Below, piece after piece: positions 22,283 through 24,098 of a DNA stretch of 44,706 bases. The notes beneath the pieces are model-generated. The model made no database searches and was not told the DNA's origin. It was given only the letters and a program-made list of their open reading frames with translations. The stretch comes from a phage. Within the stretch, counting starts at the first letter, position 1. Each line of letters opens with the position of its first letter. The translations under genes were made by a program, and so were the position numbers. The stretch is taken from assembly GCA_021454005.1 (NCBI GenBank), contig GCA_021454005.1_3939.1; one strand, 5' to 3'.

Positions 22283-22656
22283 GGCAGATTTTTTATAAGG
22301 CTACTGCCATCCTTCCATACCCTACCTTACCACACCTAACCATACCTAACCAAACTACACCATACAATACCTTATTAAAAGACCCTCTTAAAGACCTTTT
22401 AAAAAGGTAAGTCTCATTTTAATGTAGCTGAGACTAACTACCCACACCTTACCTCACCTGACCTGACCTGACCATACCTAGCATTACCGTGCCACACCTC
22501 ACTTAAAAACCCTCTTAGAAGACTCTTAAGTGATGTAATCGGATTTTAATGTAGCTCCGATTAACTACCCGCACTTTACCAAACCTCACCCTACCCTACC
22601 AGACCTTACCTAACCGCGCCGTACCTCATTAAAAGACCCTCTTAAAGACCTTTTAA
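22283..22656. repeat. intergenic modular repeat array A (3 units)
   Basis: Hairpins at 22283-22308, 22410-22435, 22536-22563; G-depleted tracts at 22309-22374, 22436-22499, 22564-22628; second hairpin family at 22375-22402, 22500-22532, 22629-22656. Confidence 0.7.
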
Positions 22657-22678
22657 AAAGGAGCCTCCGAAGAGGCTA
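22651..22678 (-). terminator. rho-independent terminator (UUCG tetraloop) after 146-aa gene
   Basis: On - strand: AGCCTC-TTCG-GAGGCT followed by CC TTTTT; 10 nt after stop of gene 22689..23129. Confidence 0.5.
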
Positions 22679-22688
22679 CCTAGTCAAC

Positions 22689-23129
22689 TTAGAAAGGTTT
22701 TCTACGTTGCTTGTTAATGTTAGCTTTCATAGCAGCTAAATGGTTTTGCTGTTCAATTAGTCGTGAACGTTCTTGATGGCTAAGTACCATAGTGTTCACA
22801 TTCTCAATCGCTTGAGTGGCTTGCTTTAAAGCACGACCAATCTTACCAGACATTTTACGTTTTGCAATAGTTGCTTGATGCTTAGGTTCAACCACACGAT
22901 AACCAACACCCATTGAAGCAACCAGATAAATCTTCTCTTCTTTAAGAAGCTTCTCAATAAACTTCTCAAGTCGATTTAAGCGTGTAAGCGCATAAGCCTT
23001 CATTTCATCTTCGTACTTAACAATGTCACCTTGATAAGTTGGCTTCACAATACCTAAGAAGGTGTCCATCTCAGAATGTGATACAGTGTCACCGTAACTA
23101 AACTTTGCTGCTAATGCTTTTGTATTCAT
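22689..23129 (-). CDS. hypothetical protein (cassette gene 2)
   Basis: 146 aa ORF, basic C-terminus (KANINKQRRKPF); no motif recognised; between repeat arrays. Confidence 0.4.
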   Translation of the reverse strand: MNTKALAAKFSYGDTVSHSEMDTFLGIVKPTYQGDIVKYEDEMKAYALTRLNRLEKFIEKLLKEEKIYLVASMGVGYRVVEPKHQATIAKRKMSGKIGRALKQATQAIENVNTMVLSHQERSRLIEQQNHLAAMKANINKQRRKPF

Positions 23130-23131
23130 AA

Positions 23132-23719
23132 TTAAACGTTACCTTCTGAAATAACTTCTACAGAAAAACGACCAAAGCGTGGACGCCAATCACCTACACC
23201 ACAAAGGTTGCCAGCATTTTCCAGAACCATCAGAAGTTCCTCTCTGGTGATTTGCTCTTCATCGAACATCAAACCGAACTCTACAGACCAGTCACGGAAG
23301 ATTGGGCGGTAGCTCATAACTCGTGCTGTACCAATCTTAACAGACTTAGCATAGATAAAGTCTGGATTCTTAGCAAGTTCTTGTGGGTTTGCTGGACAGT
23401 TCTTGATAGTCATTGGGAAGACTACATCTGTCAGCATAATGGCTCGGTCAATTACCTTACCAAGTTTGTTAAGTTTTGCACCAGACTTGATACAAGCCTC
23501 AATCATCTCACCGTTCATAACAAAACCTAGCTGCTCATCGTAGTAACAGGAAGTTACTAGTTGGCTTTCTGCTAAGAGCGCATAGTCTTCGTCAGTCTTT
23601 TTACGTTTACTGGACAGAGACTTGTGATATTTTGTCAGAGGGTTTAATGGGTCTGACAACGTATCGTTATGGCTCAAGAAAGGACGAGTACCAGTGATTT
23701 TGATATTTAACAGTTTCAT
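23132..23719 (-). CDS. hypothetical protein (cassette gene 1)
   Basis: Start moved to ATG 23719, which has RBS GGAG 9 nt upstream (ORF-track start 23734 has none); no motif recognised. Confidence 0.4.
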
Positions 23720-23760
23720 AGCATTTAGCTCCACACTTTAGTTGATTGTTAAGTTGTTTG

Positions 23761-24098
23761 TAAAGAACCCTCAATAGAAGACTCTTTAGAAACTTGGTAG
23801 ATTTTTAACGTGGCTACTACCATCCACCCACACTTTGCCATACCTCACCGCGCCTTACCCGACCGGGCTGCACCTTGCCTTGCCAAACATCACTTAAAAA
23901 CCCTATGAGATACCCTATCGAGTATAATTTAAAGGCTCTTAAGTGATGTAAGTCTCATTTTAATGTAGCTGAGACTAACTACCCATACCCTACTTTACCT
24001 TGCCGTACCGTACTTTACCCGACCACACCGGACAATACTTAACCCTACCTCACCCGACCGGACATCACTTAAAAACCCTCTTAGAAGACTCTTAAGTG
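23761..24098. repeat. intergenic modular repeat array B (2-3 units)
   Basis: Second-family hairpins at 23761-23788, 23891-23945, 24066-24098; first-family hairpins at 23796-23821, 23951-23976; G-depleted tracts at 23822-23890, 23977-24065. 24066-24098 equals 22500-22532; 23951-23976 equals 22410-22435. Confidence 0.7.

Follow-up and report, generated by a model that had tools for sequence, protein, structure and literature searches.

Introduction

VIPR (Viral Interference Programmable Repeat) systems, reported in 2026 preprints (bioRxiv 10.64898/2026.04.26.720920 and 10.64898/2026.04.26.720927), mediate RNA-guided DNA silencing. According to the text of these preprints, the RAMP relative Vipr polymerizes on guide RNAs (vrRNAs) of 9–16 YNNGG repeats, whose NN dinucleotides recognize double-stranded DNA while skipping one nucleotide, and a ~40-nt pseudoknot-containing tail closes each vrRNA. 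Vipr is described there as a minimal single-RRM, filament-forming, Cas7-like protein, nuclease activity not being reported; cryo-electron microscopy (cryo-EM) resolves twelve protomers on a vrRNA, which apparently add 3′-to-5′ from the pseudoknot. In type I/V arrays, hammerhead ribozymes intersperse the guides. SUSP1, whose clade is defined by >90% Vipr identity, expresses one guide upstream and three downstream of vipr–vap1, each ~100 nt in length, and heterologous expression of vrRNA1 and vipr alone gives a ~100-nt RNA. Here, we analyze a hairpin, termed HP2, that probably separates the guides of a closely related locus in a 44,706-nt stretch of phage DNA (GenBank assembly GCA_021454005.1, contig GCA_021454005.1_3939.1; this whole stretch is hereafter called the window).

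The text of the preprints mentions neither an inter-guide hairpin nor the maturation of type II guides, although their figures may draw the hairpin. The separator thus appears to be undescribed there, and it yields a directly testable hypothesis on vrRNA biogenesis.

Results and discussion

A VIPR locus of the SUSP1 clade

The window belongs to a Felixounavirus: a 4-kb query around the hairpins matched 260 phage records at 80–99% identity, with LF110P4, the closest complete genome (86 kb), as the best match (95.6% identity). Two intergenic tandem arrays flank a pair of minus-strand genes. The first gene encodes a 195-aa protein whose residues 1–195 align to residues 1–195 of PDB entry 36pp, "SUSP1 Vipr protein", and which is 97.4% identical to the phiSUSP1 gene product; it falls in PHROG 4652, where function is unassigned, and neither Pfam nor PHROGs returned a function for the products of vipr or its neighbor vap1. 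A scan of IMG/VR for (GGTNN)6GGT retrieved >120 loci, many of them on unrelated contigs with long heterogeneous GGTNN arrays, and at least 30 of them also contain a gene for a protein homologous to the 195-aa Vipr.

Judged by these comparisons, the locus is a type II VIPR system of the SUSP1 clade. Its order matches that of the SUSP1 locus (ligase, promoter, upstream guides, vipr, vap1, terminator, downstream guides), the two loci share YNNGG repeats and the pseudoknot tail, and SUSP1 itself carries the same HP2 hairpins; the present locus differs in its NN codes and in encoding two upstream and three downstream guides, compared to one and three in SUSP1. The system being already known and the locus a textbook copy of it, the arrays themselves are not a discovery. 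Their modules of ~127 bp are arranged in tandem and consist, in minus-strand order, of HP2, ~12 GGT-NN pentamers, GGGUAGUUA, and a second hairpin with the loop GCUACAUUAAAA. What a preliminary description of this DNA, made from its letters alone, had called hairpin family 1 is the vrRNA tail, and the arrays noted there are vrRNA arrays, because the tails keep the pseudoknot complementarity.

HP2 occupies the junctions of both arrays

The preliminary description had also listed six copies of a second hairpin family, which we refer to as HP2. All six are present. The pattern ACCCT-N3–7-AAGAC has five matches in the window, each at a reported site, against 0.44 expected by chance (100 shuffles, none of which reached five). 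The sixth copy (23891–23945) is missed by the pattern because its core has diverged and the copy carries an insertion. A covariance model built from 40 distinct HP2 copies in related phages returned six strong hits in the window and no more, every one of them on the minus strand (45–63 bits; E-values from 4e-12 to 6e-8), and recovered the insertion copy at 23888–23948 with 46.4 bits, whereas the plus strand scored 14–22 bits only. The full extents of the hairpins (Table 1) exceed the arms originally described.

HP2 occupies every one of the following junctions: it follows the promoter and precedes the first guide, parts a tail from the next guide, lies ahead of the vipr mRNA where the upstream guides end, and stands between the vap1 terminator and the guide that opens the downstream array. 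These positions are fixed across ~25 related loci, whose common order reads ligase, promoter, [HP2, tract, tail]n, HP2, two genes, terminator, [HP2, tract, tail]n, promoter, next gene. The position of the copy preceding vipr (copy 3), for instance, is kept in 16 related loci. Within the whole LF110P4 genome, the HP2 core, the second hairpin, and the tracts are confined to the two arrays. The suggestion that the motif extends beyond the arrays, based on a stem-loop just after nrdA (40667–40687, plus strand), did not hold: this hairpin, GAGGGTC-GTAAAA-GACCCTC, lies between nrdA and the next gene, lacks a U-run, shares with HP2 only the 10-mer AAAGACCCTC, and gave no match to the HP2 model at E ≤ 10.

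HP2 is a paired stem in minus-strand RNA

Originally, HP2 was pictured as a conserved loop carried by variable stems. The loop exists only on the plus strand. In the transcribed minus-strand RNA, ACCCT..AAGAC becomes GUCUU/AGGGU, which pairs as G·U, U·G, C-G, U·G and U-A and forms the upper stem, so that each HP2 copy is a hairpin of 12–19 bp. This upper stem is invariant, its three G·U pairs included; the few core variants (U·G to C-G, C-G to U·G, U·G to U-A) all keep the pairing. The longer plus-strand core AGAAGAC was found in three copies, while the two copies with TTAAAAG stems read AAAGAC.

The three kinds of stem noted initially are real and represent paralogous classes tied to fixed array positions in the ~25 related loci. 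Class A copies without insertion form an uninterrupted 18–19 bp stem with a 3-nt loop, class B copies have ~15–17 bp with a mismatch, and class C has 12 bp, the latter two classes folding with −7.5 to −10.2 kcal/mol. Across 40 distinct sequences, 94% of the cells of the 17-pair helix were paired, compared to 86% after shuffling and 45–72% when the 3′ partners were slid, and 7 of the 17 pairs changed on both sides, so that compensatory stem changes do occur. As the plus strand has A·C mismatches in place of the G·U pairs, the hairpin pairs far better in minus-strand RNA, which points to selection on RNA. Copy 1, for example, folds with −19.5 kcal/mol (z −5.9) on the minus strand vs. −9.7 kcal/mol on the plus strand.

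The ~20-nt insertion of copy 2 forms an extra 6-bp upper stem on top of an 18-bp lower stem. This variant recurs in five other loci, and the changes in its upper stem preserve pairing. As described previously, the insertion contains TATAAT (23923–23928, plus strand); it is no promoter, since a −35 element is missing, the hexamer lies on the non-transcribed strand, and the promoter scan did not call it. Promoters were also considered inside class B copies (TTAAAA-N17-TTTAAT) and rejected, as the essential −11 A is absent and the scan made no call there.

A probable separator and possible maturation signal

In SUSP1, the repeats of the upstream guide begin at the 3′ base of HP2 and number 12, which equals the 12 Vipr protomers of the cryo-EM structure as given in the preprint text. 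HP2 abuts the first repeat with an overlap of 0–5 nt. Since 60 nt of repeats and a 40-nt tail add up to the ~100 nt reported in that text, we infer that HP2 lies outside the mature guide and, going by this published guide size, it is probably excised from the precursor. In agreement with the earlier suggestion that copies mark transcript boundaries, HP2 probably sits at RNA boundaries, namely vrRNA ends. On balance, we favor HP2 as the inter-guide separator of the type II VIPR array, most likely serving as a maturation or boundary signal.

Two mechanisms might underlie such a role, and both could hold together. HP2 might be the double-stranded target of a host endonuclease, most obviously RNase III in the case of the 19-bp class A copies, and the cut would then be followed by trimming back to the vrRNA ends protected by Vipr and the pseudoknot. 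Alternatively, it might act as a structural stop that fixes the end of the Vipr filament. A more specific proposal, in which HP2 is a dedicated maturation signal read by a specific factor (host RNase III, or a phage protein such as Vipr or Vap1) that sets both vrRNA ends, is plausible but tentative, and we give it less credence than the general role. If true, HP2 would be the VIPR counterpart of the repeat hairpin of clustered regularly interspaced short palindromic repeats (CRISPR) and would show how pre-vrRNA is processed. HP2 is the only conserved element placed to cut type II guides from a precursor; knowing the signal would explain guide biogenesis, give design rules for multiplexed synthetic vrRNA arrays, and bear on whether VIPR and CRISPR repeat processing are linked in evolution, as has been proposed.

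Comparison with described systems places HP2 among several solutions for the same slot. The hammerhead ribozymes of type I/V VIPR arrays are likewise structured RNAs between consecutive guides and, according to the preprint text, define guide ends; HP2 differs from them as a simple hairpin without a ribozyme core, and cleavage, if any, must occur in trans. Rfam yielded no family at gathering score across the window, and no hammerhead or other ribozyme, nor anything relevant at E ≤ 5, was found in 22150–24200. Other VIPR clades fill the slot with 3–4-nt punctuation, AU-rich tails or a tRNA-like minihelix. As the fillers differ by clade, the inter-guide slot would be the seat of lineage-specific end-defining signals. 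Cas6 hairpins of CRISPR arrays, as well as the duplexes of trans-activating CRISPR RNA (tracrRNA) and repeat that are RNase III substrates, resemble HP2 in that a conserved stem lies between variable guides and the guide 5′ end falls at the 3′ stem base. A host double-strand-specific RNase is likewise a plausible processing enzyme for HP2. In contrast to CRISPR, HP2 is apparently discarded instead of serving as a handle, the vrRNA handle being a separate 3′ pseudoknot, and no Cas6-like nuclease is known in the locus. The RNase III sites in the early region of phage T7 (R0.3–R1.3) are, as generally known, also related intergenic hairpins that separate functional RNAs, there within a polycistronic transcript. 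Internal loops in these T7 sites lead to single cuts, cleavage at HP2 being hypothetical.

Several observations weigh against HP2 as a maturation or boundary signal. Its absence from the mature guide rests on sizes that are approximate in the preprint text (~100 nt, <100 nt). Class B and C copies, with 12–17 bp and −7.5 to −10 kcal/mol, are marginal for RNase III: set against a requirement of about two turns of double-stranded RNA, class A offers 18–19 bp and the lower stem of the insertion copy 18 bp, class B ~15–17 bp and class C 12 bp. The three G·U pairs are not replaced by Watson–Crick pairs in 38–40 of the 40 sequences, which argues for sequence-specific recognition rather than for recognition of generic double-stranded RNA. 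Independent covariation events are few, because most of the covariation separates the three paralog classes. Furthermore, the last downstream guide is followed by a promoter stem-loop and not by HP2, and the downstream array sits behind the vap1 terminator.

Alternative explanations

HP2 might never be a nuclease target but act purely as a structural insulator or filament stop, with unprotected RNA simply being degraded. Guides would then fold independently, the pseudoknot of one leaving the repeats of its neighbor undisturbed, and Vipr polymerization, running 3′ to 5′ from the pseudoknot, would be blocked past the first repeat. We consider this unlikely, yet it accommodates the direct abutment of HP2 and first repeat (0–5 nt overlap), the apparent 3′-to-5′ addition of Vipr in the preprint text, the inability of a double-stranded stem to present single-stranded GGY, and the similar-style hairpins found between tRNA genes. 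However, any non-GGY sequence could stop a filament, other VIPR arrays use 3–4 nt of punctuation, and both the invariant GUCUU/AGGGU and the copy before the vipr mRNA, after which no repeats follow, would be left unexplained. That invariance, with three G·U pairs never turned Watson–Crick, would instead suit a maturation site recognized by a phage protein (Vipr, Vap1 or another), similar to Cas6 at the 3′ base of the CRISPR hairpin. The geometry is that of Cas6, with the guide 5′ end at the 3′ base of the hairpin, and, in the preprint text, Vipr is a RAMP relative and vrRNA1 with vipr alone suffices for a ~100-nt RNA in heterologous expression. The same text, however, presents Vipr as a minimal single-RRM Cas7-like filament protein and reports no nuclease activity for it, and HP2-bearing orphan arrays persist in phages without vipr and vap1, rendering recognition by a phage protein improbable in our view.

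We deem it more improbable still that HP2 acts at the DNA level, as an inverted repeat providing a homology or cruciform site for unequal recombination by which guide units and the vipr–vap1 cassette would be shuffled, duplicated or deleted. Guide number does vary between phages; some carry a single array but lack the cassette, the outcome that recombination between the flanking arrays would give, and LF110P4 possesses a chimeric tail hairpin with non-pairing arms. Yet any conserved segment, the tail included, would serve recombination equally, and the much better pairing in minus-strand RNA makes recombination look like a consequence rather than the selected function. The least credible explanation, already contradicted by the data, is the one initially put forward, namely a genome-wide regulatory hairpin (terminator, promoter or boundary motif) with a conserved loop and a promoter in the insertion copy. 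The hairpins are intergenic and adjoin real promoters and a terminator, and one of them contains TATAAT. However, no copy is followed by a U-run, the core is missing elsewhere in the 86 kb of LF110P4, the nrdA hairpin is no family member, the TATAAT lacks a −35 element and occupies the non-coding strand, and the supposed loop is paired in the transcribed strand. As to termination, HP2 stems are rich in A/U and G·U pairs and run into GGY repeats, and the sole intrinsic terminator called was that of vap1.

Guides, promoters and terminator of the locus

The features of the locus are compiled in Table 1.

Table 1. Annotated and predicted features of the VIPR locus, in the order of minus-strand transcription (window positions).
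Feature	Position	Strand	Description	Basis
Upstream promoter	24132..24159	−	Predicted sigma-70-type promoter, TTGACA-N16-TATACT	11/12 hexamer positions match; promoter scan
HP2 copy 1	24062..24102	−	Class A (CACTTAA stem), 19 bp; between promoter/transcription start site and first repeat of vrRNA-a	58.9 bits
vrRNA-a repeat tract	23983..24062	−	16 YNNGG repeats	Repeat format matches vrRNA definition
vrRNA-a 3′ tail	23950..23982	−	Hairpin AGUCUCA/UGAGACU, loop CUAC complementary to upstream GUAG (pseudoknot)	Sequence
HP2 copy 2	23887..23949	−	Class A with ~20-nt insertion	−28.7 kcal/mol, z −8.7; 46.4 bits
vrRNA-b repeat tract	23828..23892	−	12–13 YNNGG repeats, GGC-rich variant	Sequence
vrRNA-b 3′ tail	23789..23827	−	Hairpin UGGUAG/CUACCA, pseudoknot GUGG:CCAC	Sequence
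HP2 copy 3	23761..23788	−	Class C (TAAAGA stem), 12 bp; between last upstream vrRNA and vipr 5′ untranslated region	−10.2 kcal/mol; 45.3 bits
vipr	23132..23719	−	195 aa, RAMP-family guide-RNA-binding protein	PDB 36pp, E=1.5e-127
vap1	22689..23129	−	146 aa, Vipr-accessory protein	98.6% identity to gene directly after vipr in phiSUSP1
vap1 terminator	22655..22677	−	Intrinsic terminator after vap1, AGCCUC-UUCG-GAGGCU and U-run	Terminator scan, called 22677–22662
HP2 copy 4	22625..22660	−	Class B (TTAAAAG stem); between terminator and vrRNA-c	−7.8 kcal/mol; 61.8 bits
vrRNA-c repeat tract	22569..22628	−	12 repeats	Sequence
vrRNA-c 3′ tail	22537..22568	−	Stem UAAUCGG/CCGAUUA, pseudoknot GUAG:CUAC	Sequence
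HP2 copy 5	22496..22536	−	Class A; between vrRNA-c and vrRNA-d	−14.8 kcal/mol, z −4.4; 58 bits
vrRNA-d repeat tract	22442..22501	−	12 repeats	Sequence
vrRNA-d 3′ tail	22407..22441	−		Sequence
HP2 copy 6	22371..22406	−	Class B; between vrRNA-d and vrRNA-e	−7.5 kcal/mol; 62.9 bits
vrRNA-e repeat tract	22315..22374	−	12 repeats	Sequence
vrRNA-e 3′ tail	22282..22314	−	Stem UGGCAG/CUGCCA, pseudoknot AAGG:CCUU	Sequence
Promoter of next gene	22225..22281	−	−35 TTGACA inside 12-bp inverted repeat AATAAGCTATAA...TTATAGCTTATT	Promoter scan; annotated in AYO145A

Among 80 tracts, GG[T] accounted for 65–78% per position, NN was near random, and tracts spanned 9–19 units. They are hypervariable between phages but keep GGY in strict register, and for given flanks their length differs only by multiples of 5 nt. 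Within the window, pentamer periodicity is confined to these tracts. The tails fall into three covarying types, each with a 6–7-bp stem and, in a test at the sequence level, a 4-bp complementarity between an upstream segment and the loop (GUAG:CUAC, GUGG:CCAC or AAGG:CCUU).

What the guides target was addressed by searching for their NN codes under the one-nucleotide-skip rule. Neither vrRNA-c nor vrRNA-d had a perfect match in IMG/VR, a search restricted to perfect matches, and 11 repeats of vrRNA-c had none in GTDB representative genomes. Across the 86 kb of LF110P4, the closest relative, matches to the codes of the five guides likewise did not exceed those in shuffled controls, so that no self-targeting is evident. 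In LF110P4, one vrRNA tail hairpin is chimeric (L004, 27321–27332), with the non-pairing arms ATCGGA (left) and TGAGACT (right), its counterpart in the window being intact; this suggests, by its sequence, recombination between neighboring guide units.

Before VIPR was recognized, the tracts and their surroundings had invited other explanations, all superseded by its identification: (GGTNN)12 as the site of a TRAP-like ring protein, TRAP sites having a period of 5 nt; a replication origin of the R-loop type lying downstream of a strong promoter; an antisense-strand rut site; an antitermination site resembling boxA/boxB/boxC; recombination hotspots rich in GT; arrays at which RNA polymerase pauses; and short open reading frames (ORFs) behind a Shine–Dalgarno-like AAGAGGG, which are not conserved and whose period of 5 is non-coding. 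Genome ends lie elsewhere; the 608-bp terminal repeat of UAB_Phi87 maps near the homologue of wV8 gp055. The present repeats are missing from those listed in the Felix O1 genome paper, and literature searches on Felixounavirus repeats or transcriptomes returned nothing relevant.

Genes on the minus strand run from 29360 down to 18707 in the window. The upstream promoter lies directly past the ligase stop codon, coincides with an annotated promoter of phage AYO145A, and recurs at the start of the array in most of the related loci; the upstream vrRNA array and vipr–vap1 would both be driven from it. Its −10 and start region are enclosed by an inverted repeat, GGTGAGTA...TACTCACC (24100–24140, minus strand). 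The U-run of the vap1 terminator overlaps the 5′ arm of HP2 copy 4. At the far end of the downstream array, the inverted repeat around the next gene's −35 element bounds the last vrRNA, where no HP2 follows.

Orphan arrays, other clades and minor observations

In the phage database, array-like DNA was detected in 231 phage records compared to 118 with Vipr at ≥90% identity. In some relatives (L010, L014, L020 and L025), the locus reads promoter, HP2, tract, tail, HP2, tract, tail, promoter and contains neither vipr nor vap1. Such single arrays look orphaned, a layout to be expected had recombination between the flanking arrays deleted the cassette.

Very long vrRNA arrays, of 7, ~18 and 13 units, were also observed on unrelated viral contigs (L037, 3396–3840, minus strand; L123, 3228–4390; L047, 2302–3200), each directly 3′ of a Vipr homologue and with units parted by 3–4 nt or by a 14-nt AU-rich motif. 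Past the tract, a distant Vipr clade (~33% identity) has a tRNA-like minihelix (L139, ~815–875; L050, minus strand, ~14885–14934) composed of a 7-bp acceptor-like stem and a GGTTCGATTCC T-arm, in which ARAGORN calls no tRNA; to judge by its shape, this minihelix could be an end-defining signal of the RNase P/Z type.

Weak matches to the HP2 model (13–26 bits) were noticed in LF110P4 (L005) at 37090–37127, 37938–37970, 38541–38572 and 40542–40578. These are AU-rich, G·U-containing hairpins in the spacers of a 26-tRNA cluster, another multi-RNA precursor; one ends 6 nt before tRNA-Arg and another fills the spacer between tRNA-Gln and tRNA-His. They are compatible with a general phage habit of parting structured RNAs with such stems.

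With respect to the window as a whole, cumulative GC skew tracks the direction of transcription and nothing more, and a short tandem repeat of CAG/CAGCAG is present at 8104–8151, within a plus-strand ORF of the structural region (6388–8616).

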